64,000 nt of DNA from Pelistega sp. (lineage in GTDB: Bacteria > Pseudomonadota > Gammaproteobacteria > Burkholderiales > Burkholderiaceae_B): the NCBI GenBank assembly GCA_030538255.1, contig JAUNUI010000012.1, positions 17,490 to 81,489 on the forward strand, in the 5' to 3' direction. Below, piece by piece: positions 7,209 through 64,000 of this stretch (positions are counted from its first letter, which is position 1; the number at the start of each line of letters is the position of its first letter). The translations under genes were made by a program, and so were the position numbers. The notes under the pieces are model-generated. The model saw nothing but the letters and a program-made list of their open reading frames with translations. It was not told where the DNA came from and searched no databases.

Positions 7209-8408
7209 TTGACGATGGAAAACTTTGACTTTGATATTGCCATTCTTGGTGCTGGCCCTGTTGGTTTAGCGTTGGCGATTGGCTTAAGTAAACTCGCTGA
7301 AAAGAAGCCTGCAAACTCAACTCAAGCGCTGCGCATTGCCTTATTCCAAGGCCAACAAGTCCCTATCCCTCCTGAGAAAGACACGCGTGTCTTAGCCTTA
7401 AATCATGGCAGTCGTGTCTTCTTAGAGGCAATTGAGGCCTGGCCCAATAAGAGCACCGATATCAAGACCGTCCATGTGTCTCAGAAAGGGCGCCTTGGCC
7501 GCACCCTCATTACCGACGCAGAGATGGCGGTGCCACGCTTAGGTAGCATGGTGTCGTATGCGTATCTACATCAATCGCTGAGCACTCGCCTAGCCAATAC
7601 CCCAGTGACTATCTTATCGGGTGAGCTTGCCAGTGCCCAAGCGCCAGCACAAGATGATTCTTGTCAAAATATCGCTGGTGCTATGGTCACGCAAGGTGAG
7701 CACAAATACCGCGTGCGCTTAGTGATTCAATGTGACGGTTTACGCGCCCAAGATATTCAGCGTCAGTATGATCAGCATGCTTTGATTACCAGTGTCTATG
7801 TGCGCTATCCGCAACCAGGTTGGGCCTGGGAACGCTTTACGCAAGAAGGGCCGCTAGCTGTTCTCCCCCACCCTATTTTTCCTGGTGCTCAATCGATTGT
7901 ATGGGCAACGAGCCCGACTAAAGCACGTCAGCTCCTTGAGATGCCTGAGGCTGAGTTCGAGCAGGCTTTATTAGAGCACTTTGGTGATCGCTTGGGTCGC
8001 TTTACGCTGGCAGAAAAGCGGGCAATTTTCCCGCTCCATCTGAATGTAAATACGCATACCGTCAAACCCAGTATGGTGGTGATTGGTAATGCCGCCCAAA
8101 CTCTCCACCCAGTAGCGGGTCAAGGCTTAAACCTAGGCCTGCGTGATGTCGCGACGCTGCTAAACTGTCTCGCCCCTTGGTTAAATCATGTGCAACAAGA
8201 TGTGCAAACCTTCTTGCTGCGTTATCAAGAAGCGCGCAGCATTGATCGCCGTATTACTTGGGAATTAACTGATTTCTTGCCACGAGTTTTCACCACCAAG
8301 AATCCCCTAGTGGAGCATGCTTGTGGTTTGAGTTTGCTCGCCATGGATATGGCAAAACCTCTACGTCAACCCTTAACCACGCAGCTCTTACAAGGTTTTA
8401 GGCCTTAA
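7209..8408 (+). CDS. FAD-dependent monooxygenase, UbiH/UbiF/VisC/COQ6 family
   Basis: Carries the GAGPVGLALA dinucleotide fold and the GNAAQTLHPVAGQGLNLGLRD motif. Confidence 0.85.
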   Translation: MTMENFDFDIAILGAGPVGLALAIGLSKLAEKKPANSTQALRIALFQGQQVPIPPEKDTRVLALNHGSRVFLEAIEAWPNKSTDIKTVHVSQKGRLGRTLITDAEMAVPRLGSMVSYAYLHQSLSTRLANTPVTILSGELASAQAPAQDDSCQNIAGAMVTQGEHKYRVRLVIQCDGLRAQDIQRQYDQHALITSVYVRYPQPGWAWERFTQEGPLAVLPHPIFPGAQSIVWATSPTKARQLLEMPEAEFEQALLEHFGDRLGRFTLAEKRAIFPLHLNVNTHTVKPSMVVIGNAAQTLHPVAGQGLNLGLRDVATLLNCLAPWLNHVQQDVQTFLLRYQEARSIDRRITWELTDFLPRVFTTKNPLVEHACGLSLLAMDMAKPLRQPLTTQLLQGFRP

Positions 8409-8414
8409 TTAATT

Positions 8415-8555
8415 GGAAAAAGTGCTGGTTTGTTTAGTCGAGCTGAGCTTTTGAAAAAGGCACTGGTTTATTTGGACGAGAAGGTTTTGTGAAAAAGGCG
8501 TTGGTTTATTTAGCCTAGCTGAGCCTTTTAAAAAGGTGCTGGTTTAGTTAACGTT
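8415..8555 (+). repeat. 38-39-nt tandem repeat x4 immediately after the UbiH-family stop codon
   Basis: The core (t)gaaaaaGgYRcTGGTTTrTTTaG recurs at 8415, 8453, 8491 and 8530. Unit ends (gagcttttga, aaggttttgtga, gagccttttaa) resemble the CDS tail caaggttttaggccttaa. Confidence 0.85.
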
Positions 8556-8557
8556 GA

Positions 8558-8582
8558 GTTGAGTCTTCATTTCAGACTCAAC
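8558..8582 (+). terminator. hairpin closing the repeat tract
   Basis: Stem GTTGAGTCT, loop tcatttc, stem AGACTCAAC (9 bp). No U-run follows, so a terminator function is uncertain. Confidence 0.35.
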
Positions 8583-8725
8583 TAGCCTTCTTCACGAAAC
8601 TGAAACAATGCGACCGAAGATACTGGCGGTCAATTGTCCAAATATGGAACACAGGCCACCCTTAAGAATCGTAAATAATTGCGCATTTTTTACACAAGTG
8701 CTGCTAGCTTCGTTAAAATCACGAC

Positions 8726-9727
8726 ATGAAAATTGGTCCTTGGCAACTTCCCAACCCTATCTTTGTAGCGCCCATGGCTGGCGTTACTGATCGTCCCTTC
8801 CGTCAGCTTTGTAAGCGACTAGGGGCGGGTTATGCTGTGTCCGAAATGGCGGCCAGCAATCCTAAACTCTGGGATAGTGTCAAGACCTCTCGTCGACTCA
8901 ACCATGACGGAGAAATCAATCCTATCGCCGTGCAAATTGCGGGGGCTGATCCAGAGATGATGGCGCAAGCCGCGGTATTTAATATTAATAAGGGTGCGAA
9001 AATCATCGATATTAATATGGGCTGTCCCGTTAAGAAAGTATGCAGCGTCGCTTCGGGTTCGGCACTTTTGCGTGATGAAAACCTGGTGGTAGCTATTTTG
9101 CAGGCGGTGGTGAAGGCTTGTCAGCCTTTTGAAGTGCCTGTCACCTTGAAGACCCGCACGGGCTGGGATCACTCACATAAAAATGCCTTGCGCATTGGTG
9201 AGCTCGCGCAAGATATTGGTATCAGTGCGCTGACCTTACATGGGCGCACACGCGCTGATCTTTACACAGGTGAGGCAGAATACGATACTATTAAACAAGT
9301 TAAGCAAGCTTTAGAGATTCCCGTGGTCGCCAATGGCGATATTGATTCTCCACAGAAAGCGAAATTCGTGCTTGACTACACAGGTGCTGATGCTATTATG
9401 GTTGGCCGTGCGGCTCAAGGTAATCCATGGATTTTTCAACAAATCAATCATTACCTTCAGACTGACACTCAACTCGCACCGCCAGATTTTGCCCATATGC
9501 AAGAGATCCTTCTTGGCCATCTGCATGAGCATTATCAGTTTTATGGAGAGCATACAGGCGTGCGTAGTGCACGTAAACATATAGCCTGGTATGTGTCACA
9601 CTTGCCACAAGCGCAAGCATTTATTGATGAGATGAATCAGATTAACACGAGCGCAGAACAATATACGCTGGTGGAGAACTGGTTTTCTCAATTAATTGAT
9701 CAGCACGATCTAGCTCTTACTCATTAA
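8726..9727 (+). CDS. dusB: tRNA-dihydrouridine synthase B
   Basis: FVAPMAGVTDRPFR...INMGCP...; 333 aa; followed by fis, the classic dusB-fis arrangement. Confidence 0.9.
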   Translation: MKIGPWQLPNPIFVAPMAGVTDRPFRQLCKRLGAGYAVSEMAASNPKLWDSVKTSRRLNHDGEINPIAVQIAGADPEMMAQAAVFNINKGAKIIDINMGCPVKKVCSVASGSALLRDENLVVAILQAVVKACQPFEVPVTLKTRTGWDHSHKNALRIGELAQDIGISALTLHGRTRADLYTGEAEYDTIKQVKQALEIPVVANGDIDSPQKAKFVLDYTGADAIMVGRAAQGNPWIFQQINHYLQTDTQLAPPDFAHMQEILLGHLHEHYQFYGEHTGVRSARKHIAWYVSHLPQAQAFIDEMNQINTSAEQYTLVENWFSQLIDQHDLALTH

Positions 9728-9736
9728 CCCAATAAT

Positions 9737-9973
9737 ATGACAAAACCAATACCAATTGACGAATGTATTCGTACTAATTTAGCCGCCTATTTTAAAGAAT
9801 TAGGGCAAAATCCCGCTAATAATATTTGGGATATGGTGATGAGCAGCGTTGAAAAAGCCATGCTCGAAACCGTTATGCAGCAAGCTGAAGGCAATCAATC
9901 GAAGGCCTCAGAGATGCTTGGCATTACGCGCAATACATTACGTAAAAAACTTCTTTCTCATCATCTTATTTAA
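9737..9973 (+). CDS. fis: Fis-family DNA-binding protein
   Basis: 78 aa with the C-terminal [24 protein letters not shown]. Confidence 0.85.
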
Positions 9974-9981
9974 GACGCATC

Positions 9982-11571
9982 ATGAAATTATCTACTGCTT
10001 TGTTATCGGTTTCAGATAAAACCGGGATTGTTGAATTTGCTCAAGCGCTTGCGGCACGTGGCATTAAATTACTGTCTACAGGTGGCACCGCTGCCCTGCT
10101 TAAGCAAGCGGGCCTTGAGGTCACCGAGGTCGCTGAGCACACGGGCTCACCTGAAATCTTAGACGGTCGTGTGAAAACTCTGCATCCTAAAATTCATGGT
10201 GGTCTATTAGGTCGTCGTGACGATGAAAAACACTTAGCGACAATGGCTGAGCATGGTATTGCAGCGATTGATTTGCTTGTGGTGAACTTATACCCTTTCC
10301 GTGAAACCATTGCTAAGCCGAATTGCAGCTTTGCCGATGCGGTCGAGAATATTGATATTGGTGGCCCAGCCATGTTGCGTGCTGCGGCTAAAAATCACGG
10401 TACGGAAGTTGGCGGTGTAACCGTAGTTATCGATCCTTCTGACTATACTCAAGTATTGCAAGAGATTGATGAATTTGGTCAGCCTTCATATGGTTTACGC
10501 TTAAAATTAGCCACTAAGACTTATGCCCATACTGCGGCGTATGATGGTGCTATTGCCCAATACTTAAGCAGCTTAGTCGATGCTGAGCCGGCGCAAGATG
10601 CACAACCTACGCGTAAGCAATGGCCAAGTACCATTACCCTGCAATTACAGCAGCATCAAGAATTGCGTTACGGTGAGAATCCGCACCAACAAGCCGCCTT
10701 CTATTTAGATCCTATCACTGGTGAAGGTCTACTTGGTCGCTACCAACAATTGCAAGGCAAGGAATTGTCATACAACAATATTGCCGATGCGGATGCTGCT
10801 TGGGAATGTTCACGCAGCTTTGATGTGCCTGTCTGCGTTATCGTTAAGCACGCTAACCCTTGTGGTGTGGCGATTGCTGAGAATGCATTTGCTGCCTATC
10901 AGAAAGCTTTTAAGACCGACCCTACCTCAGCTTTCGGTGGCATTATCGCCTTCAACCGTACGGTTGATGTGCAAGTGGCGCAGGAAGTCAGCAAGCAATT
11001 TATGGAAGTTTTATTAGCCCCGGATTACACGCCCGAAGCTTTAGAACTCTTAGCTGCTAAGAAAAATGTGCGCGTATTAAAAGTCGCCAGCGGCTCAGCG
11101 CAGAACCCATTTGACGTGAAACGCGTCGGTGGTGGCTGGTTAGTACAAGATCCTGACGCTTTCGACGTACCCGTTGAGTCCCTCAAAGTCGTCACGAAAA
11201 AGCAACCGACCGAGCAACAATTGAAAGACTTGATGTTTGCCTGGAAAGTCGCGAAGTACGTGAAGTCGAATGCCATCGTATTCTGTGCCGACGGTATGAC
11301 CATGGGCGTCGGTGCGGGTCAAATGAGCCGTCTTGACTCAGCACGTATCGCGTCGATTAAGGCCGAAGCCAATGGTTTAAGCTTGAAAACCACTGCCGCG
11401 GCTTCAGATGCCTTCTTCCCTTTCCGTGATGGTCTCGATGTGATTGTGGCCGCCGGTGCCGATTGTATTATTCAGCCAGGTGGTAGTATCCGTGATGATG
11501 AAGTGATTGATGCCGCTAATGAACATGGTATTGCCATGGTCTACACAGGCACTCGTCATTTCCGTCACTAA
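9982..11571 (+). CDS. purH: bifunctional AICAR transformylase / IMP cyclohydrolase
   Basis: 529 aa. N-terminal MGS-like block [15 protein letters not shown]...[10 protein letters not shown] and C-terminal AICARFT block [11 protein letters not shown]...[10 protein letters not shown]. Confidence 0.95.
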
Positions 11572-11661
11572 TCCGCTGCGCTCGCCTAAGCAGCAGTGCA
11601 AGTGTGAATCTATTAACGGTAAGGTGTAAACATGCGCCCATTCAACGGTGAGCACTAAGAC

Positions 11662-12201: not shown

Positions 12202-12213
12202 GTTAAAGACAGG

Positions 12214-12364
12214 GTTTACGCTGTACACTTAAGCAATAAAGGTCCGCAGGATTTTTCATAGTACGAAAATGAACGTTTACGTTGCGCACTTAAGCAATAA
12301 AGGTACGTGTTTGGTCTGCAATCGAGCGAGCAATCGTTTACGCTATACACTTAAGCAATAAAGT
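12214..12364 (+). repeat. 61-nt-period repeat x3 (29-nt conserved core plus 32-nt variable segment) between ruvC and ruvA
   Basis: The cores start at 12214, 12275 and 12336: gtttacgctgtacacttaagcaataaagg / gtttacgttgcgcacttaagcaataaagg / gtttacgctatacacttaagcaataaagt. The intervening 32-mers are unrelated to one another. Confidence 0.9.
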
Positions 12365-12427
12365 GGCGACATACGTTAAAAAGGCTCTAGAGGAACAGAC
12401 TCAAAAACTCAAGGAAAAAGGAAAAAT

Positions 12428-13000: not shown

Positions 13001-13165
13001 GTGAGAGGCCGAGTAAAGTCTACGGTTACAGCTTAACGATTTGCAGTTAAGTGTTACTCTTTGAGGCTTACTCATACGATTGAAAGATGTTGAAGAATTA
13101 CTGATTTATTATGCACAACAACTGGCTCCTTGTGAGCAAATAATATTCTTGGTGGAAACAACGAT

Positions 13166-14146: not shown

Positions 14147-14163
14147 TCCCTTGCTTTACCACG

Positions 14164-14197
14164 AAGGGTTAGCCGTCTGATTTGCTAACCCTTTTTC
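14164..14197 (+). terminator. stem-loop with U-run after dctP (intra-operon attenuator/terminator)
   Basis: AAGGGTTAGC...GCTAACCCTT followed by TTTCG. Confidence 0.55.
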
Positions 14198-16411: not shown

Positions 16412-16475
16412 TAGCAATGTCTTATATAATGAAATAAGACTAGCCTAGAAACTTCTATATTATGGAGAGAACGCT

Positions 16476-16769
16476 ATGCGCCCCTCTGAAATACTTGCCT
16501 CCAATAGAGATGCTGTCTTAGCAATTTTTGCGAAATACCCTAAGCTTGTGAACCCTAGAGTATTTGGATCGGTTGCTTCTGGACAAGACACTGAGTTAAG
16601 CGATATAGACTTCTTAGTGGATGACTTACCGCAAGCAACGCTATTTGATTTAGGCGGCTTATATGTTGAACTCAATGAGCTACTCGGCGTTAATGTTGAT
16701 GTTGTCACTCCAGGGGATTTACCACAAAAATTTCGCGATATTGTTATTAAAGAAGCCGTGCCATTATGA
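16476..16769 (+). CDS. mntA: MntA-type nucleotidyltransferase antitoxin (type VII TA)
   Basis: GSVASGQDTELSDIDFLV (GS...DxD minimal nucleotidyltransferase motif). 97 aa, with an ATGA overlap onto the HepT gene. Confidence 0.85.
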   Translation: MRPSEILASNRDAVLAIFAKYPKLVNPRVFGSVASGQDTELSDIDFLVDDLPQATLFDLGGLYVELNELLGVNVDVVTPGDLPQKFRDIVIKEAVPL

Positions 16770-17149
16770 GTAATTTGATGCGATTGGTAGACTATCTTGA
16801 GCATATTGAGAAAGCATGTGTTGATTGTATTGCCGATTTAAAAGGCATTACTCGAGAAACCTTTCTACTTGACAGCCAGATTCAACGCTCCGTGACGATG
16901 AGTATCATCATTATTGGTGAGGCATCAACAAAGATATCTCAACAATTTCCAGTTTTTGTTCAAGACAACCCACAAATACCTTGGATTGCAATGCGTGGTA
17001 TTAGGAATCGTTTAGTTCATGGTTATTATGAAATCAATCTCAACACCTTATGGAATACCGCAACGACAAACATTCCAGAGGTTTATTCCCTTCTTTCAGT
17101 TTTAAAACTGAGAGCTGAATCTTACACTCAAAACATACAAAACCAATAG
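16766..17149 (+). CDS. hepT: HepT-type HEPN (DUF86) RNase toxin
   Basis: RNRLVHGY matches the Rx4HxY HEPN motif. 127 aa. Confidence 0.85.
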   Translation: MSNLMRLVDYLEHIEKACVDCIADLKGITRETFLLDSQIQRSVTMSIIIIGEASTKISQQFPVFVQDNPQIPWIAMRGIRNRLVHGYYEINLNTLWNTATTNIPEVYSLLSVLKLRAESYTQNIQNQ

Positions 17150-17227
17150 ATCTGTGTGATGGAATGCTTAATACTTTAAATTGATATTTTGACAAAATAA
17201 CATTCATGTAGTATTTCTGGGTGACAT

Positions 17228-17263
17228 TGGTGTAAGCTTATACAGTGGTGTAAGCTTATACAG
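17228..17263 (+). repeat. 18-nt x2 tandem duplication downstream of hepT
   Basis: tggtgtaagcttatacag occurs twice, head to tail. Confidence 0.9.
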
Positions 17264-20233: not shown

Positions 20234-20452
20234 TATAAATTGCTAACCTAACTAAGAAACAGGAAAATATAAGAAACGAGAAAAATAATTAATTTAATTT
20301 AAAACTAATTGGCTTAAGCGCTACGTACAGTAAGCGATATCCCTTTTTATATAGCGGTTATTATAAGCGATTGTTTGTCCTACATCAGACTAATCGCCAT
20401 TGCTTAGCGCTATAATTTGACTTTGTTTTTCTGATTGATTGGCGTAATAATT

Positions 20453-22573: not shown

Positions 22574-22903
22574 TTAAATCAGGTACATCCCAACACCATA
22601 GGCCACGATGCCTAGCAACATGGCAATACCGATATTCTTAGTGGCTTTCAGCGCGATACCAACAATCAAGACAGCCACCACATAAGCCCCGATATGCCAT
22701 GCGCTAGGGGCCTTATGAATTTCTGAATAGAGCACCACCGCTGTCGTGCTCGTCAATAAGGCAGGACCTAATATGGCAAAGCGACCTGAGCCTAAGCGCG
22801 AGAGCCATTTGCTTTTTTGCATAATTAAAAAAGGCACTGCCCGCGTCGCATAGGTTAAGACAGCCATGGCCGCAATGGCGGCATACATTTCCCAACTGAT
22901 CAT
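22574..22903 (-). CDS. azlD: branched-chain amino acid transport protein AzlD
   Basis: 109-aa small hydrophobic protein downstream of azlC. Confidence 0.75.
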   Translation of the reverse strand: MISWEMYAAIAAMAVLTYATRAVPFLIMQKSKWLSRLGSGRFAILGPALLTSTTAVVLYSEIHKAPSAWHIGAYVVAVLIVGIALKATKNIGIAMLLGIVAYGVGMYLI

Positions 22904-22907
22904 TGTG

Positions 22908-23063
22908 CACCTACCTTATTCTCTGGCTCGACTAACATTACCCATGCACCTACCTTATTCTCTGGCTCGACTAACATTCCCCATGCACCTGCCTTACTCT
23001 CTGGCTCGACTAGCATTCCCCATGCACCTGCCTTACTCTTTAGCTTGACTAAGATTTCCCAAT
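22908..23063 (-). repeat. 39-nt x4 tandem repeat filling the azlC-azlD gap; each unit is a Shine-Dalgarno (SD) site plus a 9-codon mini-ORF
   Basis: The units lie at 22908-22946, 22947-22985, 22986-23024 and 23025-23063. On the minus strand each reads TAAGG(C/T)AGGTGC ATG GGN AAT GYT AGT CGA GCC AGA GAR TAA. Confidence 0.95.
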
Positions 23064-23767
23064 TAACCATGTTGCACCTGCTGACTCTGTGGTGTGTAGA
23101 AGATGCAAGCCACTGCCGCGCCAACTAAGATGGCCACTGTTGACCAACCTAGGGCCGCCACAATCACACTACTGAGGGCTGCTAATAGCAAGGCTCTTAC
23201 CATAGGACCTTGAATCGTTAATAAGGTAACGGCAACGAACATGGCGGTGAGTGAGAAGCCCAAGGTCTGACCTAAGAGTGGGAATGAACGCGTAATCGAC
23301 TCACCCGCGAAGATGCCAATGGCCGTGCCTGTTAACCACGATAGCCAGGCAAATATGCCTAAACCAAAGTGCCAAGCGGTCTTGCCCTCGGGTGCAATAT
23401 CTTTTAACTTTAAATAACACACAGCAAAGACCTCATCGGTGAGATAGAACGCCTTGGCCAATCGCGTCTTTAAGCCCGGTGGGATATAGCGCTCAATAAT
23501 CGGACCATATAAGAGATGGCGCACATTAATTAAGGCCACGAGAAACACCATGGTGACGATGGGCGTACCCAATTGCAAGGAGGCCAAGATTAAGAACTGA
23601 CCACTGCCTGCATAGACAAAGAATGAAATTAAGAGCAGCTCAACAGGGCTTAGGCCCATGCTACTACCACCGACACCAAAGGCAAGGGATGCCGGAAGAT
23701 ACCCCAGCATGGTCGGCACAGCAGCCCGAATGCCTTGGATAAAATACGAAAGTTGAGATTTATGCAT
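23063..23767 (-). CDS. azlC: AzlC-family branched-chain amino acid permease component
   Basis: GYLPASLAFGVGG...SFFVYAGSGQF... The start overlaps the ATPase stop (ATGCATAA). Confidence 0.8.
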   Translation of the reverse strand: MHKSQLSYFIQGIRAAVPTMLGYLPASLAFGVGGSSMGLSPVELLLISFFVYAGSGQFLILASLQLGTPIVTMVFLVALINVRHLLYGPIIERYIPPGLKTRLAKAFYLTDEVFAVCYLKLKDIAPEGKTAWHFGLGIFAWLSWLTGTAIGIFAGESITRSFPLLGQTLGFSLTAMFVAVTLLTIQGPMVRALLLAALSSVIVAALGWSTVAILVGAAVACIFYTPQSQQVQHG

Positions 23768-28244: not shown

Positions 28245-28338
28245 AAAAAACATACACTTCAATTGACTCTTTTCGGATGCTAAGGAACTAGTGAATGCAA
28301 CGCACAAATAACTCCTTAGCAATCTACCTTAAGCGTAT

Positions 28339-28377
28339 CTTACAAGGCTTGCGGTAAAACTACAATATCGCCCTCAT
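28339..28377 (-). repeat. downstream copy of the rraA 3' end including its stop codon
   Basis: cttacaaggcttgcggtaaaactacaata (28339-28367) matches 28405-28433 at 28/29 positions. The copy reads ...GDIVVLPQAL-stop against the real ...DGIVVLPQAL-stop. Confidence 0.9.
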
Positions 28378-28405
28378 ATGCGCTTATCCGACTTCAGCGA
28401 ATTGC

Positions 28406-28882
28406 TTACAAGGCTTGCGGTAAAACCACAATACCATCATCATCACTGTATAAGTAATGACCAGGTATAAAGTCCACACCGCCAAAGCTGATTACAGTGT
28501 CCTGCTCGCCCTTAGCGTCTTTAGCGCTCTTACGAGGATTGGTACCGAGCGCTTTAACACTAATATCCATAGTCGCAATGAGCGCACTATCACGAATCGC
28601 GCCATTGATGATAATCCCTGCCCAGCCATTCTCCATGGCTGAGGTCGCAATCATATCACCGCATAGCGCACTATACAAAGAAGCGCCTCCATCGACTACC
28701 AAAACCGCCCCATTCCCAGGGGTGGCTAAGGTATTTTTCACCAGACCATTGTCTTGAAACACTTTCAAGGTACGAATGGGTCCCGCTGTCACACGCTTAC
28801 GACCAAACTGGCGAAACTGCGTGTCACATGAAGGGGCATCAGGTACGGCATCAATCACATCACATGTTGGCATGGCAGTCAT
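28406..28882 (-). CDS. rraA: RraA-family protein (RNase E regulator / HMG-CHA aldolase-oxaloacetate decarboxylase fold)
   Basis: 158 aa with ...LVVDGG...ALCGDMIATSAMENGWAGIIINGAIRD. Confidence 0.8.
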   Translation of the reverse strand: MTAMPTCDVIDAVPDAPSCDTQFRQFGRKRVTAGPIRTLKVFQDNGLVKNTLATPGNGAVLVVDGGASLYSALCGDMIATSAMENGWAGIIINGAIRDSALIATMDISVKALGTNPRKSAKDAKGEQDTVISFGGVDFIPGHYLYSDDDGIVVLPQAL

Positions 28883-30170: not shown

Positions 30171-30245
30171 TTTAGCTCAATCTTATCGCTTCATCTTTAG
30201 CTCAATCTTATCGCTCCATCTTTGGCTTAATCTTATCGCTTAAAT
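30171..30245. repeat. 25-nt x3 tandem repeat between acnD and prpF
   Basis: tttagctcaatcttatcgcttcatc / tttagctcaatcttatcgctccatc / tttggcttaatcttatcgcttaaat. Confidence 0.9.
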
Positions 30246-36646: not shown

Positions 36647-36722
36647 GGGCTGGTAGCTCAGCCGGTAGAGCAGCGGACTTTTAATCCGTTGGTCCCGGGT
36701 TCGAATCCCGGCCAGCCCACCA
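36647..36722 (+). tRNA. tRNA-Lys (anticodon UUU)
   Basis: Hand-folded cloverleaf: acceptor GGGCTGG/CCAGCCC, D-arm GCTC..GAGC, anticodon arm GCGGA CTTTTAA TCCGT, T-arm CCGGG TTCGAAT CCCGG, encoded CCA. Confidence 0.95.
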
Positions 36723-40924: not shown

Positions 40925-41424
40925 GTTGACCCGTTAATCGTCGTAAAGTGGACGGACATTAAAAATCCTAAACCCCTATTCTGACCGATTTCGCACAAAA
41001 TTTAAATCAATTTAGTGAATTTTAGATAAATAAATGCATCCAAGGACTTGTTTTATAAGTTCTTTTTAAATTCTAAGCATCTATAATGATTCTTATATCG
41101 CTTTTTCCCACTTTATCTGTTCATGACTAAAACCACACTCACGCATACCAGTAAGTGAAGAATTCAGTCGATTCATTAATCCTAGTGAGAAATAGATTTT
41201 TTCTAACAATCAGAGAAAAAATATAATCTAAGTAAAAATAATAAATGCTATAGAAAGAAACTCTCGCATGCGCATCAAGTAGAACCATTCTAGCGCCAAT
41301 CCGTAACGGTATGATTATCTTAATCATCTGCTTAGATACCTACTTAGTCACCCCCTCCAAAGCCCATATTCCTTATATTTTTTGCGCCAAGTTCCCCTTA
41401 CCTGTGCATTACCTGCACTTTTCC

Positions 41425-41516
41425 TTATCTCGGCAGAATGGCCTGTCTATCTCGGCAGAATGGTCTAATTATCGCGGCAGAATCGCCTGCCATAGATCAC
41501 GCTCAGAATGATCTAA
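41425..41516 (-). repeat. three downstream re-copies (22, 22 and 48 nt) of the mnmC 3' end, each ending in a stop codon
   Basis: Plus-strand units: ttatctcggcagaatggcctgt, ctatctcggcagaatggtctaa, and ttatcgcggcagaatcgcctgccatagatcacgctcagaatgatctaa. The last is identical over 37 nt to the true tail at 41517-41553. Each decodes as ILPR-stop. Confidence 0.95.
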
Positions 41517-43943
41517 TTATCGCGGCAGAATCGCCTGCCATAGATCACGCTCAATCGGCAGCGGCTCCCCTTCTAAGTAGGCAGCAATCACGTCTCCTGC
41601 CAAGCTACTCCAGGTCAGACCATGCGAGGCATAGGCACAGGCCAAGAAAATCCCAGGAGCATGCGCTAATGGACCAATCACTGGCATACGACCTTGTACC
41701 ACGGCGCGACTACCCGCCCAACCACCAAGTTGGCCTTGCGCCCTTAAACGAGGCAAATCCAAACCGAGATCCAAGGGTAACTTTCGCAGAATAGCCTCTT
41801 GACCTTCTTCACTTACCTGTGGATTGACTTGATTATGGATATACGTGCCGCCCATGACACAATAATTTTCAAAAGACGGCAGCAAATAGCCTTGACCCGC
41901 GACAATACATTGTGGCCCCCCTCCTACTAAATCAGCAGGTACATGCATGGCTTCACCTCCCATAGGATGCAAGGTATCGAATCGACTTATAGCATTCACC
42001 ACTTGACCTGATTTTAAGGTTTTAAGATCTAAATGACTCCGCCGCAAAAGCTCCGCGGTGTTCAGTGCTGTCGCTAAAATCACTTGTGAACTGCGAGCTA
42101 TTTCAAGTCCACTGCTCGACATAATAGCGCACTGTGTTAGCGGATCATTCGCTGACTGCGGGTCATTCCTTATTAAGCGCAGGCTGTCAACTTCATCACA
42201 AACCAACTCAATCAAGGGATGCGATAAGAGCTTATGTATCAGTCGTAGCGGTGATATCTGCATACCATAGGGGAAAAAGGCACCGTGCTGCTCCAATGAC
42301 AAGCCTGAAAGTGTTGAGGCCTCTTGTGCACTCACCAGACGTACCCATTCTTTAGGGAAATTTAATGCTTGAACCGCCTCGAGAATGTCTTTAGCATGCC
42401 CCTTATCGCGGTTTAGCTCAAGTGTGCCACATGGATTAATGCCCGCTTCTTCACCCCAAGCTTTCCAGCGCGCATGAGCACGTAATGTACCTGCACGACT
42501 TAAGCGTGCTTTATGACTATCATCGGCCGTAATTAGCGGTGTTAAGGCAGCTGATAGCCTACCCGAATGACTAAGCGCTTGCTGATTGGTAAACTGCGTA
42601 TCAATCACCTTAACCGGCCAACCACGCAAGGCCAAGGCATAAGCAATCCCAGCTCCCGCTAAACCTGCTCCAATAACACAAGCCTCACGTGCATGCTGTG
42701 CCGCGACCTGAATAGCCGGTCGCTTACTTTGCCCTTGTAGAAGGAGCGCAGCAGCAATACCTATGCATTTATCACTATCATGCGATGATGCATCTACTGG
42801 CTCCGTAGACTGGTATTGCCTGCGGGTTAAGGAGCAACTTCCATGCTCCTGATTGGGGGGTACATGTAATGATTCAGTAGACTTATACTGTGGCTGCTTA
42901 TACTGTGACTGCTTATACTGTGGCTGATCAGAGTCACGACCAGTAGGTATCTCATGCCATTGTGTATGGAGTTGCCCTCCTAGCTCATGCAGCACATGAG
43001 CTTCATCTGCCGCCACTATCGCCCAAACCTTAGGCTGGCTTAAGCGTAAGATATCACGCCAGCGCTGCTGCTGAGCTTGGGCATCGACATATTGCTTTGC
43101 GAGACCGTCAAGATGCAACACCACACCATCAATATTCGCCATCACTTGGCGCCATGAATGTTGCGAACCATATAAGAGGCTAAGTGTAAATCGTCCCTCA
43201 GCCAGTTCTAAGCGATGCATACCTGGTAATAATAAGGGCCACTGTGAAGCCAAGTCCTGCAGCTCCTTACAATCGGGAGCTAAAGTTTGAAATAAAAGCT
43301 GGGCGTCTTCGGCTGCTAAAGGATAAGATTCGACGACCACGAGATGCATAGCAGGACGCTGCCCCATTGCAGTGAGACTTGTCCTAGCTGCCATGCTAGG
43401 TACTGTCGAGTCACGTGTTGCTCCAGGCACATGCCCCTGCCCTGTCGCCTCTTGGCTAGTCCTAGACGTGGCCGCTATGTGTCCTGTCTTCTCTTGATTT
43501 ATCGTAGGCGCAGTCGCTTTGTGCCACGCTTGCCACAAGCGATATAAGGCAATAATCGGTGCCACGCCCATGCCACTATCTATTGCAATACTGACATTGC
43601 TTGTAGCAAGATGCCCTGCTTGATTAGCCCCAACTTGAATTAGTTCTACCAGATTAGATTCAACTTTATTGGATTCAACATGCTTTGCCTCAACTTGATT
43701 AGCCCCAACTTGAATTAACTCAACTTGATTTTGTGCTTGCAGCGTTAGGCTACCATACCAACACTGCTCAGGGCTGTGGATGGAGTAATGCTCAGCATGT
43801 AGTTCTAAAGTAGAAGCTTGAATCAATTCTTTATCCTTAATTGGTGTACTGCAACGTTGATTTAACCACGGCATTATCTTAGGGCTCTTATGCTGCTTGC
43901 CCTCAAGCATCACCCTGACATTCGCGCTACTAAGCCTAAGCAC
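41517..43943 (-). CDS. mnmC: bifunctional tRNA mnm5s2U biosynthesis protein MnmC (methyltransferase-like N-domain plus FAD oxidoreductase), expanded to 808 aa
   Basis: C-terminal DAO domain CVIGAGLAGAGIAYALALRG... The N-domain is colinear with the MnmC MT domain (DSGMGVAP.., WPLLLPGMHRLELAEGRFTLSLLYG, HLDGLA). Several low-complexity or repeat insertions are present. The start is uncertain (GTG at 43943 or internal Met codons). Confidence 0.75.
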   Translation of the reverse strand: MLRLSSANVRVMLEGKQHKSPKIMPWLNQRCSTPIKDKELIQASTLELHAEHYSIHSPEQCWYGSLTLQAQNQVELIQVGANQVEAKHVESNKVESNLVELIQVGANQAGHLATSNVSIAIDSGMGVAPIIALYRLWQAWHKATAPTINQEKTGHIAATSRTSQEATGQGHVPGATRDSTVPSMAARTSLTAMGQRPAMHLVVVESYPLAAEDAQLLFQTLAPDCKELQDLASQWPLLLPGMHRLELAEGRFTLSLLYGSQHSWRQVMANIDGVVLHLDGLAKQYVDAQAQQQRWRDILRLSQPKVWAIVAADEAHVLHELGGQLHTQWHEIPTGRDSDQPQYKQSQYKQPQYKSTESLHVPPNQEHGSCSLTRRQYQSTEPVDASSHDSDKCIGIAAALLLQGQSKRPAIQVAAQHAREACVIGAGLAGAGIAYALALRGWPVKVIDTQFTNQQALSHSGRLSAALTPLITADDSHKARLSRAGTLRAHARWKAWGEEAGINPCGTLELNRDKGHAKDILEAVQALNFPKEWVRLVSAQEASTLSGLSLEQHGAFFPYGMQISPLRLIHKLLSHPLIELVCDEVDSLRLIRNDPQSANDPLTQCAIMSSSGLEIARSSQVILATALNTAELLRRSHLDLKTLKSGQVVNAISRFDTLHPMGGEAMHVPADLVGGGPQCIVAGQGYLLPSFENYCVMGGTYIHNQVNPQVSEEGQEAILRKLPLDLGLDLPRLRAQGQLGGWAGSRAVVQGRMPVIGPLAHAPGIFLACAYASHGLTWSSLAGDVIAAYLEGEPLPIERDLWQAILPR
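42882..42926 (-). repeat. in-frame 15-nt x3 tandem repeat inside mnmC
   Basis: cttatactgtggctg / cttatactgtgactg / cttatactgtggctg, encoding QPQYK QSQYK QPQYK. Confidence 0.95.
43623..43727 (-). repeat. in-frame 15-nt x7 tandem repeat inside the mnmC N-terminal region
   Basis: Units such as attagccccaacttg occur twice exactly, 75 nt apart. The tract encodes the pentapeptide array NQVEL IQVGA NQVEA KHVES NKVES NLVEL IQVGA. Confidence 0.9.
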
Positions 43944-45160: not shown

Positions 45161-45207
45161 CCATTAGCTCCAAAAACCATTAGCTCGAAAACTATTAACT
45201 CGACAAA
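45161..45207 (+). repeat. 15-16-nt x3 (plus degenerate flanks) tandem repeat in the mgtE upstream region
   Basis: ccattagctccaaaaa / ccattagctcgaaaa / ctattaactcgacaaa. Confidence 0.85.
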
Positions 45208-45250
45208 CCATCCGCAACAACTTTAACCATAAATTAATAGACTGTTTTTT

Positions 45251-46748: not shown

Positions 46749-46817
46749 CCACACAGCCATAAAAAACCACCAAACTTACGAAGATAAATCATAAGGATTG
46801 GTGGTTTTCGTGTGTGG
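46749..46817. terminator. long-stem hairpin between convergent mgtE and secA
   Basis: CCACACA..AAAAACCACCAA (24-nt loop) TTGGTGGTTTT..TGTGTGG. A second inverted repeat, GTGGCTTAGCGAT/ATCGCTAGCCAC, lies at about 46814-46857. Confidence 0.55.
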
Positions 46818-46878
46818 CTTAGCGATTGTGGCTTAACGAATCCACTATCGCTAGCCACTATCTCTAGCCCAGTAGCGC

Positions 46879-51362: not shown

Positions 51363-51498
51363 ATGACAGGACATATCCCTTACTTAGTACATCTGCCTAG
51401 ATTTAAACGAAGGCATGTTGCTCTGTTCAGTTAGCAATGCCAAGCTCCAAGCCTTACATAAACGCCCTACTTAGTCCTCCACTCCTACACCTGGTAGC

Positions 51499-51553
51499 AA
51501 CTAAGCAAGACCTAAGCAAGAACTAAGTGAGAACTTAGTGAGTCCTAATCAGA
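51499..51553 (-). repeat. 11-nt x4-5 tandem repeat downstream of lpxC, mimicking its last codons plus stop
   Basis: Plus-strand units: aactaagcaag / acctaagcaag / aactaagtgag / aacttagtgag / (tcctaatcaga). The true tail at 51564-51575 is aacttaagcgag. Confidence 0.9.
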
Positions 51554-51566
51554 TATTTAAGTAAAC

Positions 51567-52490
51567 TTAAGCGAGACGCCAATCACGACTCACAACTTGT
51601 GCGGCTTGCGCACTCGAATCATACGTCACGATTTCCCAGGCATCTTCTTGCTCTAATAGCGCACGTGCCAATTTATTATTTAAGCCGTGCCCAGACTTGC
51701 ATGCGACATAACGAGCTAGCAATGGATAACCGATAAGATATAAATCACCAATAGCATCAAGAATCTTATGCTTTACAAACTCATCGTCATAGCGTAAGCC
51801 ATCGGGGTTAAGAATACGATACTCATCCATCACGATCGCATTATCTAAACTACCGCCACGTGCTAAACCAATGTTACGCAACATCTCAACATCGTTAGCG
51901 AAGCCAAAGGTACGTGCACGGGCAATTTCATCGATATATGAATCAGCACCAAAATCAATTTCAGCAAAGCTAGCGGTTGAATCAATCGCCGGATGATGGA
52001 AATCAATTGAGAATGCGAGTGCAAAACCTTCGTAAGGCTCTAGACGCGCCCACTTGGCATTCTCACCCTCACCTTCGGATACTTCAACGGTTTTCTTGAC
52101 TCGCAGGAAACGCTTCGCAGCGCTCTGCTCCACAATACCCGCATCACGCAACAAATAGACAAATGTCGCCGCGCTGCCATCCATAATTGGAATTTCTTCA
52201 GCATCAACGTCGATATGGATATTGTCAATACCTAAACCCGCTAAAGCACTCATCAAATGCTCAACAGTAGAAACACGATACTGACCGTTCTGTAAGACCG
52301 AGGCCATGCGTGTATCACCCACTTTATTGGCTTGAGCAGGAAAGTCAAGCACCTCAGGGGTGTCTACTCGGTGAAATACGATACCCGTATTCTCCTGTGC
52401 TGGGCGCAAAGTAAGTTGTACACGCTGACCTGAGTGAACACCCACGCCTGTCGCCGTAACTAACTTTTTAATGGTTCTTTGTTTTAACAT
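51567..52490 (-). CDS. lpxC: UDP-3-O-acyl-N-acetylglucosamine deacetylase
   Basis: 307 aa: MLKQRTI...GVGVHSG...[14 protein letters not shown]...DGSA; the typical position after ftsZ. Confidence 0.95.
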
Positions 52491-52789
52491 GTATTTTGTC
52501 TTGGGTTATTCACCCACTCCATACAATAAAAATTACTCAATAAGCTATTTTACTCCGATTTGTATCAGAGCGCTAAATAAGAATAATTAAAAATGGCAAA
52601 AAATTATTGCTAAAAAGGCTTCTTCGTAATAAGTTTGACGGTTTAATGAAATTTCATTAAACCTACCTAATTTGATTATTCATCATTTATCTCTATTAAT
52701 ATCAGTCACTTATAAATTTTCACTGCCTAGGCAGTTTAACACAAATAAGCGATATTAAATAAAGTTTATGAATGTCGGCGTCCTACAAT

Positions 52790-52825
52790 AACAAAAACGG
52801 AAGTAGTTGGGGGAACTACTTCCGT
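52790..52825 (-). terminator. rho-independent terminator after ftsZ
   Basis: Minus strand: ACGGAAGTAGTT ccccc AACTACTTCCGT followed by TTTTTGTTATT. Confidence 0.8.
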
Positions 52826-52871
52826 TGGGAGTTGAAACCAAAGACTTGGTTTCATATTATTTATCGATCAA

Positions 52872-54059: not shown

Positions 54060-54562
54060 GTGCCCAACTCCTAATTTCTGAAACCATTAACGAAACCCCC
54101 AAATTTCGGAAATCGTCTCAAAGAAAAGCCCAGCGCGTAACTTCTCGGTCTTCTCTTTGAACCGCCTCCATATTCATTATGCAAAGAATATCCAAGCTTG
54201 ACCCACATCATCAGACATATCTTGGTGATTTGCCTTTCCCCTGCAAATTGCCTAAATACATCATCAATACTTCATTAACATCCAGTCATCACCCTTAGTT
54301 ACACGTTATATTCTCATTGTCTACCTGCTAATGCACGTAAACATAGGCTAAATACACGTTAATTAAGCATTAAATCAGCGTTAATTATGTATTGATTAAA
54401 TAATATAGCACCTTAATATGCATAAAACCCATTCACTTAATCTGATTGATTAACCCCTTAATCAACACGACTAATTCCTGAATTATTACGCCTATCAAGC
54501 TAAATATTATGCTTCACACAACAAAATACTTACACAGTAGATACTGTCTCCTTAATTATAGT

Positions 54563-56577: not shown

Positions 56578-56585
56578 AACTACCC

Positions 56586-60009: not shown

Positions 60010-61225
60010 TGATGCTATTTCCTCTATACGCTTGTTCGTTTTGTCCACGCATCATTTTACGATTTTCAAAGTCAACGCGCATCAATAATGCGACGGCGAC
60101 CAGATTCATTACTAAGGCTGAGCCACCATAACTCACCAAGGGTAGAGTCAGACCCTTAGTAGGCAGGAGCCCTAAACATACGCCTAAATTCACAAATGAC
60201 TGTATTCCAAACCATATCGCAACGCCTTGGGCAACTAAACCATTGAATTCGCGATCCATGGCGATAGCTTGACGCCCAATATCTAAGCCCTTGCGCACAA
60301 CAATCATAAATAAAACGATAACGGCTAAGATGCCAACAAAGCCAAGCTCTTCACCCACCACAGCCATAATAAAGTCGGTATGTGCCTCAGGTAAATAGTG
60401 CAATTTTTCAATACTAAAGCCGAGTCCTACGCCAAAAAACTCGCCGCGTCCAATGGCGATAAGCGAGTGACTTAATTGATAACCAATCGACTGCGCATGT
60501 TCTGCACTAAAGGGATCTAAATAAGCAAAAATACGCTGCATACGCCAAGGAGTCGCCACAATCAGCGCAATAAAACCCAAGACAGCCGCAAGCATCATTC
60601 CGACAAACAACTTCATACTCGCGCCACCCAAGAAGATGATGCCAAGAACAATGCAGACTATCACTAAAGCGGCGCCTAGATCGGGCTCTTTCAACAATAA
60701 GAGCACCACGAGGCCTAAAAAGCCCAGAGTAATCGGGATGACCCCTTTGAGTTGATGCATGCTTTGTTGCTTACGCACAGTATAATAAGCGGCGAATATC
60801 ACCATGGCCACTTTCATAAACTCTGAAGGTTGGAAATTAATTGGCCCTAAAGGAATCCAGCGATAGGCACCATTCACTTGGCGACCGATAAATGGCACCA
60901 AGACAAGTACGAGCAACACTACACCGACGATGTAAATGAGTAAGGCTTTCTTCTCCCAAAACTGCATAGGCACTTGGCAAACTAAGAAGGCGACACAGAG
61001 TCCCGCAACAATAAAGACGAGATGGCGGTTAAAGAAGGAGAAGCGGTTGGCATTTACAAATTTAGGGCCGTCAGCCAAAGCGATTGAGGCGGAATACACC
61101 ATAATCAAGCCAAAAATCAATAAGGCACCGACCGCACAAACCAATAAAAGATCGTAATCACGCATCGCTGTACGCGTTGCCCGATTCGACCGCATCCCAC
61201 TACGCAAACCAGCCATCACGCTCAT
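59996..61225 (-). CDS. ftsW: peptidoglycan glycosyltransferase FtsW (SEDS)
   Basis: 409-aa polytopic SEDS protein with ...PSEFMK...[17 protein letters not shown]. Confidence 0.93.
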
Positions 61226-62742
61226 AGCATTTCTCCTTGGTCTCGTGCAAGTTGCTCCACGGCTTGGGCAAATTTCTCACCACGCTCATGGTAGTTCTTA
61301 AACATGTCCATACTGGCACAGGCCGGTGATAATAAGACCACATCACCCTCTTGCGCATGTTGTAAGCTTACACTGACAGCCTCTTCAAGACTGGTACTAA
61401 AGATAATGGGCACTTCAGTACTGGCTAATGCTTGAGCAATAATTTCGCGGTCTTGACCAATCAAGATGAGTGCACGGGCATATTGTTTAACGGGTACGGC
61501 TAGCGGACTGAAGTCTTGACCCTTGCCTAAACCACCTGCAATTAAGACCACGCGGCGTTCCATACCGACTAAAGCTGCCTGTGTCGCGCCAACATTCGTA
61601 CCTTTAGAGTCATCGATAAAGTCCACCCCTTGGATACTACGCACAAACACGCAACGATGGGCTTGCGCTTCATAATCGCGTAAGGCGGTTAGCAATGGCG
61701 CATACGACAAACCAATAGCACGACATAAAATCATGGCAGCTAAGGCATTAGCAGCATTATGACGACCACGCACACGCATCGCATCAGCGGGCATTAAGCG
61801 CTTAACTTGGCCGCTTTTGCGAGTTGGGCGCTCGGTAATTTTTTTCTTGCGACCCGTACTAACAGGTAAATCGAACTCATCGTCATCCATGGCACAGAGC
61901 CAACTAATACCGTTAAGTTGCTCAATACCCATATCGCCCACTAATTCCGGCATATCAAGACCAAAACTGGCAACCTGCAGATCGTCCATGTATTCAACCA
62001 TGGCGCGCGTCAAGGGATCATCGCGATTAATCACAGCCAATTCACTCATCTTCAGTAATTTGGCCTTACTCGCGGCATAATGTTCTAAGCTACCATGCCA
62101 ATCAAGGTGATCTTGAGTGATATTTAAGACGACCGAGGCATGTGGTTTTAAGGATTCGGTGGTCACCATCTGGAAGCTGGATAGCTCTAAGACCCAGACA
62201 TCAGGTAAGGCTTGCTCGGCTAAGGCTTGCATCAATGCAGTTAGGGCTGATGGACTGATATTGCCTGCTGCAAGTGCAGTCTTACCCGCCTGTAAGCACA
62301 TATCACGAACCATGGTGGTCACCGTGGTTTTGCCATTCGTACCGGTAATTGCCAATACCTTAGGCTGATAGTCATGGGCTTGCGCCAAGTCCGTTAAAGC
62401 ACGCGCGAATAATTCAATTTCCCCGATAATTTCAACTGAAGCAGCACGCGCCTTATCCAAAAACGCACTTAAATTCGTTTCATTGGGCTCTAAACCAGGA
62501 CTCAATACTAGGCTATCTACACCCGCTAAAACCGCTTCGCTATAACACTCTTGCTCACCTAAGAACCAAGCATCTTGTGCCAAACCCAAACTTTGCAAGG
62601 CCTCTAGACCTGGGGGTTGTTGGCGGGTATCTGCGATACGAACCTGCGCACCTTGTTGCACGCACCAACGTGCGGCGGCAGACCCAGTTTCACCTAGGCC
62701 TAAAATCAAGATAGTCTTTTGCGCAAGAGTAGATTCAATCAT
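61222..62742 (-). CDS. murD: UDP-N-acetylmuramoylalanine--D-glutamate ligase
   Basis: LGLGETG...ITGTNGKTTVTT...; 506 aa, the long betaproteobacterial form. Confidence 0.93.
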   Translation of the reverse strand: MIESTLAQKTILILGLGETGSAAARWCVQQGAQVRIADTRQQPPGLEALQSLGLAQDAWFLGEQECYSEAVLAGVDSLVLSPGLEPNETNLSAFLDKARAASVEIIGEIELFARALTDLAQAHDYQPKVLAITGTNGKTTVTTMVRDMCLQAGKTALAAGNISPSALTALMQALAEQALPDVWVLELSSFQMVTTESLKPHASVVLNITQDHLDWHGSLEHYAASKAKLLKMSELAVINRDDPLTRAMVEYMDDLQVASFGLDMPELVGDMGIEQLNGISWLCAMDDDEFDLPVSTGRKKKITERPTRKSGQVKRLMPADAMRVRGRHNAANALAAMILCRAIGLSYAPLLTALRDYEAQAHRCVFVRSIQGVDFIDDSKGTNVGATQAALVGMERRVVLIAGGLGKGQDFSPLAVPVKQYARALILIGQDREIIAQALASTEVPIIFSTSLEEAVSVSLQHAQEGDVVLLSPACASMDMFKNYHERGEKFAQAVEQLARDQGEML

Positions 62743-62756
62743 GGTATTACGGTAAT

Positions 62757-62971
62757 TTTAAAGTTTCAATTCCAACAAGAACGAGTAAAACAAGGAGCAT
62801 TCATCGTTTTAACATTGTTTTAACGTTGCTTCAGCACAGCTTTAACATCTCTTCAGCATCATTTCAACCTACATTAACGTCGCTTCAACACAGCATTAGC
62901 ATCTCTTCAACGTCATTTCAACCTACATTAACGTCGCTTCAGCACAGCTATAACGCTGCATTAACATCACA
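62757..62971 (-). repeat. repeat-filled mraY-murD spacer: 54-nt tandem units flanked by two copies of the mraY 3' end
   Basis: The units lie at 62821-62874, 62875-62928 and 62929-62972 (last one partial). On the minus strand each ends ...CGACGTTAA or ...CAACGTTAA, like the true tail ...CTACGTTAA. Positions 62757-62800 are an approximately 85% copy of 62975-63020. Confidence 0.9.
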
Positions 62972-64000
62972 TTAACGTAGTTTTAAGGTTGAAAGACCAA
63001 CAAGGACGAGCATAATGGTGATAATCCAAAAACGCACCACCACCTGGGTTTCTTTCCAACCACCAACTTCAAAATGATGGTGCAGTGGCGCCATGCGTAG
63101 AATACGACGACCTTCACCGTAACGTTTCTTAGTGTATTTAAACCACATCACTTGAATCATGACAGATAAGGTTTCAACCACGAATACGCCACCCATAATG
63201 AAGAACACAATTTCTTGACGGGTGATCACAGCAATCGTGCCCAACATGCCGCCCAAGGCTAGGGCACCGACATCACCCATAAACACTTGGGCAGGATAGG
63301 CATTAAACCACAAGAACGCTAAGCCCGCACCACCTAGAGCGGCACACAGCACCATCATCTCCGATGCACCTGGAATATACGGGAATAGCAAATAGGCTGA
63401 GTAGTCCACACGACCCACGACATAGGCAAAAATACCTAAGGCTGCCCCCACCATCACGGTTGGCATAATCGCCAAGCCATCCAAGCCATCGGTCAGGTTA
63501 ACCGCATTACTGGCACCGACAATCACCATCCAGGTTAAAGCGGCAAAGCCAAATACGCCCAATGGGTAAGAAACATTCTTGAAAAAAGGCACAATCAAGT
63601 CTGCGCGTGACGGCAGTGGCATGGTAAAGCCGCTAAGTACCCAATCTTTAAAGAGTGGCCACAACTCTGCATTGGCAGGCACGGATACAGCGAAACTCAA
63701 ATAAATCGCGGCGACTAAACCAACGAGCGCTTGCCAAAAGAACTTCTCACGTGAGGACATGCCTTCGGGGTTGCGATACACCACTTTACGGTAGTCATCA
63801 ATCCAACCAATCGCCCCAAAACCCATGGTCACTAATAAAACGACCCAAACAAAACGATTGCTTAGGTCGGCCCATAATAAGGTGCTGATACCGATGGCGA
63901 TAAGGATTAAAACCCCGCCCATGGTCGGTGTACCATTCTTCACCAAGTGCTCTTGCGGGCCGTAAGTGCGCACGGCCTGACCAATTTTAAGTTCCGTTAA
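62972..64000 (-). CDS. mraY: phospho-N-acetylmuramoyl-pentapeptide transferase MraY (N-terminus beyond window end)
   Basis: ...KNGTPTMGG...[13 protein letters not shown]...HHHFE... The frame stays open to position 64000. Confidence 0.95.

Follow-up and report, generated by a model that had tools for sequence, protein, structure and literature searches.

Why should the last codons and the stop codon of unrelated genes be found again, in tandem, just downstream of the true stop codon? This question is raised by a 64-kb stretch of DNA from Pelistega sp. (hereafter the window; G+C content of 46.5%, about 51 genes), in which a first-pass annotation described such tail copies at seven or more loci and ascribed them to a genome-level process, or to selection, acting at stop codons. 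The DNA that we examined consists of these 64 kb of one short-read metagenome-assembled genome (MAG) and of syntenic fragments of its relatives. The window carries a real, species-specific set of variable number tandem repeats (VNTRs), many of which begin inside the last codons of the preceding gene. We consider it probable that these arrays are locally generated and are a tolerated by-product of replication slippage, rather than a new system acting on stop codons.

Tail homology and its controls

Arrays were called with Tandem Repeats Finder and a repeat finder, which recovered the places and the periods already reported (11, 22, 39, 48, 54, 61 and 66 nucleotides (nt)) and added a period of 38 nt. 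The arrays consist of head-to-tail copies of one unit, according to the repeat finders and, at lpxC, to a lag-11 autocorrelation of 0.61. Tail homology was tested by comparing the last 30-36 nt of each gene, stop codon included, with its own downstream spacer, the null distribution being given by the tails of other genes or by 408 random 36-mers from the interior of coding sequences (CDSs), with a floor of 0.0024 for p. Tail copies were retrieved at five loci (mnmC, rraA, mraY, azlC and lpxC), the remainder of the seven or more being at chance level. Scores were above the null for mnmC (36, null maximum 13), rraA (27) and mraY (18, null maximum 14), each with p <= 0.0024, and for azlC (14, p = 0.005). 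Arrays do exist 12 nt past the stop codon of ruvC and 5 nt past that of the UbiH-family gene, but without significant homology to these tails (p = 0.36 and 0.47, respectively). The echo proposed after rarD (p = 0.20) does not rise above chance in this test, and neither do putative tail copies at hepT (p = 0.15) and yggS (p = 0.89). The gene at 6079-6999 was also considered as a candidate (p = 0.015) and was rejected, no convincing repeat being found on inspection.

Several controls bear on the position of these copies. A score of at least 12 was reached by 4 of the 37 tails and by none of the 34 CDS heads compared with upstream spacers, and none of 421 CDS-interior 30-mers had a nearby copy (Fisher P = 4e-5 against the tails). 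In 753 kb of other betaproteobacterial loci, retrieved by a metagenome scan with FtsZ (matches of at most 74% identity), the same score was reached by 4 of 300 tails (Fisher P = 0.006). Furthermore, 8 of the 13 intergenic arrays lie at most 20 nt from a stop codon, versus 3.0 expected under random placement in their own spacer (P ~0.0006, with a 20-nt threshold picked post hoc). The window contains 18.8 arrays per 100 kb, which account for 1.5% of its bases, versus 8.5 arrays and 0.44% in the control loci.

For comparisons between relatives, same-species strains were taken from independent metagenome assemblies, mostly from wastewater, with 94.5-97% nucleotide identity. An abundant sibling species, called here species B, shows ~85-90% nucleotide identity (L084, L101-L108 and L134-L143), while L084-L090 are syntenic DNA of Pelistega-like genomes that are increasingly distant. 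Two short sibling-species MAG contigs, L002 and L003, were the only ones obtained from a scan of genome collections with MnmC. The SecA protein of the window shows 80% identity to named Pelistega species.

At mnmC (array at 41426-41553, reverse strand, found by the repeat finders and by the tail test), the true tail and its stop codon (41517-41519) sit inside a 48-nt unit present in two copies that are identical at 47 of 48 positions (98%; 41456-41553), and 22-nt units (41426-41489) come after this pair. The four ATTCTGCCG(C/A)GATA(A/G) motifs described at first are present, each of them reading ILPR-stop, and, 16 codons downstream, the tail copy provides a TAA in frame. Only the window strain has the 48-nt duplication, same-species strains L126-L129 harboring just the 22-nt layer, which is older and common to all strains compared. 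In the sibling-species contigs L002 and L003, the tail copy is absent, the gene ending in ...AICPR-stop followed by unrelated sequence. By our reading, the 48-nt duplication spans 98 nt, which leaves ~2 nt of flanking microhomology at most, and the 22-nt layer is bounded by ATTCTG.

At rraA (28328-28433, reverse strand, CDS end at 28406), a copy of the tail lies one 66-nt period downstream. The similarity extends over 42 nt at 88% identity (28392-28433 versus 28328-28367), and the copy is located upstream of a terminator-like hairpin. Ten contigs of species B carry this duplication as well, and we counted 36 identical positions out of 40. Since the rraA copy is common to the sibling species, duplication events differ in age, some predating the species split and others being restricted to one strain.

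The lpxC tail (stop codon at 51567-51569) is followed by six further 11-nt units (51499-51577, reverse strand), which gives seven units in exact register with the stop codon, the last four being clean (CTCACTAAGTT and similar). The standard tail test was borderline for this gene (p = 0.086). An in-register test, in which 9 of 11 positions are shared by the tail 11-mer GTCTCGCTTAA and the unit GTCTTGCTTAG located exactly six periods away, was significant (P = 0.0006), so the tail copies proposed for lpxC hold by the latter test and not by the former. The composition of the units varies among strains, one strain having a unit, CTCGCTTAGG, that differs from the window tail by 1 nt, and the array is absent from L084, L085 and L101. 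Over 10.58 kb, another assembly of the same run, from Logan (L091), departs from the window at just 5 nt, all of which are inside the lpxC array in our comparison (51499-51553 versus L091 6907-7000); this reflects either two co-occurring strains or an error in array resolution. In three close relatives, LpxC ends in ...DWRLA with three different stop codons, TAA, TAG and TGA (window 51567-51569, L084 ~1336-1338 and L085 ~8291-8293).

Operon junctions and spacer length

Two of the five loci are junctions between operon genes. The azlC-azlD array (22900-23070, reverse strand) is delimited by its junction anatomy as well as by the tail test. It begins with a first junction, ATGGTTAA, whose ATG overlaps the azlC stop codon (23063-23065), continues with four 39-nt units and ends with a second junction whose ATGA overlaps the azlD start (22903). 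Each unit associates ~7 nt of the azlD head with ~32 nt of the azlC tail, and two 11-nt junction copies (...ACATGGTTAAT... and ...CAATGATCAGT...) flank the array. The gene azlC, which had been listed as a less exact case of tail copying, does show homology, but its units are mostly tail without stop codon. The unit length of 39 nt being a multiple of three, the array forms a mini-ORF (open reading frame), of 56 codons in the window, which is open in every strain seen. Strain alleles contain 2, 3 or 4 units, so that the spacer measures 81, 120 or 159 nt and the mini-ORF encodes 30, 43 or 56 amino acids, respectively. Judging from the sequence, this arrangement is what would be expected if the whole junction had been duplicated, over 50 nt, and a chimeric piece of 39 nt had then been amplified. 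The array can be viewed as a candidate newborn small ORF, variable in length.

In the mraY-murD spacer (62802-62971, reverse strand), the 54-nt units already reported were found to be higher-order units with an 11-nt base period, ending in (C/G)AACGTTAA like the true tail CTACGTTAA. Spacers of same-species strains contain an 11-nt unit, GGTGTTATAGC, in 2 to at least 9 copies, the window strain having the 54-nt higher-order pattern instead. Stop codons occur in all frames of this spacer, so that no ORF bridges the two genes. The murD ATG (62742) is directly preceded by a second, decayed mraY tail (62746-62790, reverse strand), which is identical to the true tail (62971-63015) at 34 of 45 positions (P <= 0.0005). 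The gap between both genes is only 4 nt in species B (ACGTTAAtaatATG) versus 229 nt in the window, and this pseudo-tail keeps the ancestral junction seen in species B.

Copy numbers differ by whole units among same-species strains at azlC-azlD, at mraY-murD, in a 13-mer downstream of dciA and in a 15-mer of the mnmC coding sequence. The comparison of strains advised in the first-pass annotation therefore revealed whole-unit differences in independent assemblies. Apart from the rraA copy, the arrays that could be traced in relatives are absent outside the species. At mraY-murD, lpxC and mnmC, the unit comes from adjacent sequence that is in single-copy state in sister species. These data suggest a natural and datable example of spacer growth, in which a 4-nt gap (mraY-murD) and an overlapping junction (azlC/azlD) would have grown to 159-229 nt by junction duplication and then VNTR expansion, both genes being left intact. 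Moreover, the polymorphic arrays (azlC-azlD, mraY-murD, dciA and mnmC) provide strain-typing markers for this wastewater-associated Pelistega species.

Nearly all syntenic spacers of the window are ~1.2-10 times longer than in every relative examined (for instance those at 40925-41516, 54060-54562 and 52491-52871). The mnmC-GH31 spacer reaches 592 nt versus 119-218 nt in relatives, the ftsA-ftsZ spacer 503 nt versus 181-269 nt and the lpxC-dciA spacer 204 nt versus 28-104 nt. Recognizable arrays make up only part of this excess length, and older, decayed duplications may account for the rest.

Other arrays of the window

The remaining arrays occupy various positions. Three 33-nt copies with a 61-nt period follow ruvC (12214-12368, forward strand), in a spacer of near-constant length, 226 nt in the window versus 227 nt in strain L109, for which no variation was seen between these two. 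Downstream of the UbiH-family gene, a 38-nt unit is repeated ~3.6 times (8414-8550, forward strand) and precedes a hairpin at ~8553-8585. Two short arrays with units of 14 and 13 nt (46813-46869) are located between the secA stop codon (46879) and a shared hairpin (~46764-46809), without homology to the secA tail (p = 0.66). About 14 nt past the dciA stop codon, a 13-nt unit (GTTTATCCCTTAC-like) is present in one copy in the window (51366-51390, forward strand) and is a VNTR in other strains: L092, L094, L095 and L093 have 4, 5, 6 and at least 7 copies, respectively, and the scaffold of the last has an N-gap within the VNTR.

Further arrays were called by the repeat finder. These include a 25-nt array of 2.8 copies in the middle of the spacer between an aconitase-family gene (acnD-like) and prpF (30171-30241), an 18-nt array of 2.2 copies located 74 nt past the hepT stop codon (17224-17263), a 15/16-nt array in the middle of the spacer between an inositol-monophosphatase-family gene and mgtE (45161-45211), and weak 11-nt arrays in the middle of the ftsA-ftsZ spacer (54255-54384). 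The spacer that holds the array at 45161 measures 230 nt in the window versus ~20 nt in L002. Two copies of a 17-nt unit lie in the divergent spacer between recQ and a thiO-like gene, where there is no adjacent stop codon (20253-20287). The three arrays located within the dcw cluster or beside it (51499-51577, 54255-54384 and 62802-62971) have a common 11-nt period, which is near the DNA helical repeat, and no common sequence.

Arrays also occur in frame inside genes. One of them, with 2.6 copies of a 27-nt unit (5008-5077, forward strand, repeat finder), is carried by the hydrolase gene at 4709-5899; it adds up to 2.6 copies of 9 amino acids in the N-terminal part of this alpha/beta-hydrolase, outside the region that matches PRK10985. 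Two 15-nt arrays are found in mnmC (reverse strand). The first (42882-42926, repeat finder) comprises three QPQYK-like units in the window versus two in same-species strains, i.e., a gap of 5 amino acids. The second (43621-43730), in the N-terminal part, is conserved in L126 and L129. A short gene model had made it a candidate for an intergenic array in a divergent spacer; this was rejected since translation and strain alignment place it inside mnmC, whose start lies upstream of the array, at MPWLNQRC. The in-gene periods (27, 15 and 15 nt) are thus all divisible by three, whereas the intergenic ones include 11, 13, 17, 22, 25 and 38 nt.

With its two in-frame arrays, MnmC has ~785 amino acids (41517 to ~43874, reverse strand). 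It is only 60-64% identical between close relatives, versus 78-90% for the flanking DNA, probably because of its content in in-frame repeats. For instance, mnmC of L002 holds a different in-frame array (an 18-nt unit repeated 6.3 times), and the segment at 43742-43827, in the 5' part of the gene, is 88% identical to L002. The L002 gene appears to be split in two ORFs (2085-2636 and 2655-4319), which is due either to a frame break in the MAG or to a real disruption.

The gene names given earlier that were submitted to a protein scan proved right: UbiH-family hydroxylase, dusB, purH, ruvC/A/B, hepT, recQ, azlC/azlD, EamA/RarD-type transporter, YggS-like pyridoxal phosphate (PLP) protein, DAO-domain MnmC, MgtE, SecA, DciA, LpxC and MraY. 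The HepT-type toxin gene and its upstream partner ORF (16460-17149) are located between dctM and ruvB. Since strain L109 has only a 222-nt gap between these two genes, the toxin-antitoxin pair corresponds to a strain-specific insertion or deletion. The Rfam scan of the spacers gave a single match, a tRNA at 36647-36719, and no family matched in the spacers that contain arrays. A scan of the 41-55 kb region for consensus terminators and promoters gave fewer matches than in shuffled sequence.

Origin of the arrays and known repeat systems

In the account that we favor, short tandem duplications (11 to ~66 nt) would arise repeatedly by replication slippage or template switching, the rate of such events, or their tolerance, being presumably raised in this species. 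Once two copies exist, they would undergo expansion, contraction and re-duplication. Purifying selection would then set where arrays persist: inside genes, only periods divisible by three would survive and, in spacers, survival would mainly be possible in the unconstrained stretch between stop codon and terminator. The UbiH-family and secA arrays do sit between a stop codon and a hairpin, as this model has it. A duplication that extends from the last codons to beyond the stop would leave a visible copy of the tail and its stop, the downstream copy being untranslated, and would be harmless because the upstream copy still encodes the complete protein. For operon genes that abut or overlap (azlC/azlD and mraY/murD), only a duplication of the whole junction would be tolerated, one copy keeping the upstream tail and stop and the other the downstream translation start region, and the chimeric piece between both junction copies would then amplify into an array. 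A duplication that crosses a start codon would create an upstream ORF or an N-terminal extension and would be tolerated less often; this lower tolerance would yield the tail-over-head asymmetry without any targeting of stop codons.

The arrays are local in origin, absent from sister species except for the rraA copy, polymorphic in copy number, restricted by frame inside genes and built at junctions as described above. Slippage would be the mutational mechanism, and the arrays themselves would be neutral. A tolerance filter is expected to produce such a bias toward stop codons, and the evidence requires nothing that acts on stop codons. Hence, of the process initially proposed, the lineage-level and ongoing character stands, as copy numbers differ among strains, but the action at stop codons does not. 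More broadly, a general mutational process, once filtered by selection, can seem to be directed at stop codons.

The same bias could come from mutation and not from selection if gene 3' ends were hotspots in which duplications preferentially start on a stop codon or right behind it, e.g., through template switching upon encounters of replication with terminating ribosomes or RNA polymerase, or at terminator hairpins. We regard this as unlikely, although the excess of arrays close to stop codons (8 of 13), the 4 to 5 tails without any head-only case and the fact that 5 of 6 strain-variable arrays touch or adjoin a stop codon are in line with it. Indeed, arrays are also found in the middle of spacers (17224, 30171, 45161 and 54255), in the promoter region of divergent genes (20253) and inside genes (5008, 42882 and 43621), and at both operon junctions the start region has been duplicated to the same extent as the tail and its stop. 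Start-codon duplications are in addition expected to be more harmful, so that the asymmetry needs no hotspot, and the bias relies on a sample of 13 arrays and on a threshold that was chosen afterwards. A more ambitious version, which we find improbable, holds that gene-end-directed duplication, through template switching triggered by encounters of replication with terminating ribosomes, RNA polymerase or terminators, continually re-copies tails and stops in this Pelistega lineage. It would be a regular route that opens compact operon junctions into spacers of long and variable size, some of which would be bridged by new mini-ORFs with coupled translation, such as the 30-56-amino-acid azlC-azlD peptide. 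If the bias were mutational, it would point to an unrecognized link between termination and replication slippage. Several observations do weigh against slippage and tolerance as the whole explanation. The stop-proximal excess (8 versus 3.0) and the count of tails versus heads (4 versus 0, P = 0.07) fit a hotspot too, and the filter assumes that start-proximal DNA is more constrained. Since the one datable young event, at mnmC, shows ~2 nt of microhomology at most, an origin mediated by microhomology would be hypothetical. The array density and the array bases, about two and three times those of the controls, are not accounted for. Moreover, the lpxC array differs at 5 nt between two assemblies of one run, the window belongs to a short-read MAG, and the coverage is that of 64 kb of genome with syntenic fragments of relatives.

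Selection for a function of the arrays, as back-up stops, spacers that uncouple or tune translation, contingency loci in variable 3' untranslated regions or phased 11-bp bending, would explain why many units contain TAA or TAG, why an 11-nt period rotates stops through the three frames and why this period is common to the three dcw-region arrays, as well as why the azlC-azlD mini-ORF is open in all strains and overlaps both the azlC stop and the azlD start (ATGA), a coupling geometry proposed for MIRUs. However, the units simply have their stop triplets from the tail, or else such triplets are normal for AT-rich spacers, and an open mini-ORF is expected from a self-copied 39-nt unit, which has ~13 independent codons and, by our estimate, a ~50% chance of containing no stop. 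Most arrays are not kept outside the species, sister species doing without them at the same junctions, and units are unrelated between loci. Since the arrays (save that of rraA) are absent outside the species and differ in unit from locus to locus, a selected function is not supported, and we hold it to be quite improbable. The hypothesis that a mobile element or a family of dispersed repeats (MIRU-, REP/BIME-, ERIC- or MITE-like) inserts beside stop codons has in its favor the location in operon spacers and the ORF of one array that overlaps both neighbors as in MIRUs. It is nevertheless extremely unlikely: an all-against-all comparison of 16 arrays gave only chance matches of 8-13 nt, no copy was found elsewhere in the 64 kb, and each unit at five loci matches its own neighboring gene. 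The first-pass annotation was therefore right that these are not copies of one mobile element. Finally, repeats could have been collapsed or falsely expanded during the short-read assembly of the MAG, as might be suspected from the 5 nt that separate both assemblies of the run, all in the lpxC array, and from the N-gap inside a VNTR of one strain scaffold. This is very doubtful, since copies within arrays have diverged (74-93% identity), unlike artefactual exact copies, many independent assemblies, made from other samples and with other assemblers, show the same architectures with unit-step differences, and the rraA duplication is present in ten contigs of the sister species. This recurrence and the divergence of the copies together rule out an assembly artefact.

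Literature searches retrieved no description of re-copying of a tail with its stop and nothing specific on Pelistega repeats. As stated at first, the arrays match none of REP/BIME, ERIC, Correia elements and MITEs: there are no dispersed copies, units are direct repeats of the neighboring CDS tail, and Rfam gave no match. They are not CRISPRs either, units being contiguous without unique spacers and the neighboring genes that were scanned being housekeeping genes. Unlike the template and variable repeats of diversity-generating retroelements, the copies are adjacent multi-copy arrays; no reverse transcriptase was found among the 40 ORFs, a part of those of the window, that a general protein scan covered. 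The TAACTGA repeats of Beggiatoaceae and cyanobacteria are described as abundant intergenic direct repeats rich in stop triplets, which resemble the present arrays, but as a single heptamer reused genome-wide (PMC4679880), whereas the units reported here differ at each locus and derive from adjacent genes. Extra stop codons shortly past the real one, such as the in-frame TAA at mnmC, recall back-up stop codons. However, the latter are single in-frame codons kept by selection, while the window shows copies of entire tail segments, most periods cannot be divided by three (11 and 22 nt) and copies are absent from sister species.

MIRUs are tandem units of 40-100 nt in operon spacers, whose ORF shares 4 nt (ATGA) with its neighbor, an overlap believed to maintain translational coupling (PMC12548453). 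The azlC-azlD array has the same overlap geometry in all strains. MIRUs nevertheless form one dispersed and apparently mobile family with a consensus, whereas each array of the window is unique and comes from its own flanking genes, and the bridging ORF is found at azlC-azlD but not at mraY-murD. The closest likeness is with other bacterial VNTRs. It has been described that tandem repeats generally can form by a tandem duplication that then expands (bioRxiv 10.64898/2026.02.28.708716), and prokaryotic spacers show an enrichment in such repeats (PMC12418385). The arrays of Pelistega share with such VNTRs the head-to-tail local copies, the unit-step differences between strains, the layering of old and young duplications and the enrichment in spacers (PMC12418385). 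They differ from them in that 5 of ~13 arrays begin inside the gene that precedes them, whose last codons and stop they contain, and in that two arrays split operon genes that formerly abutted.

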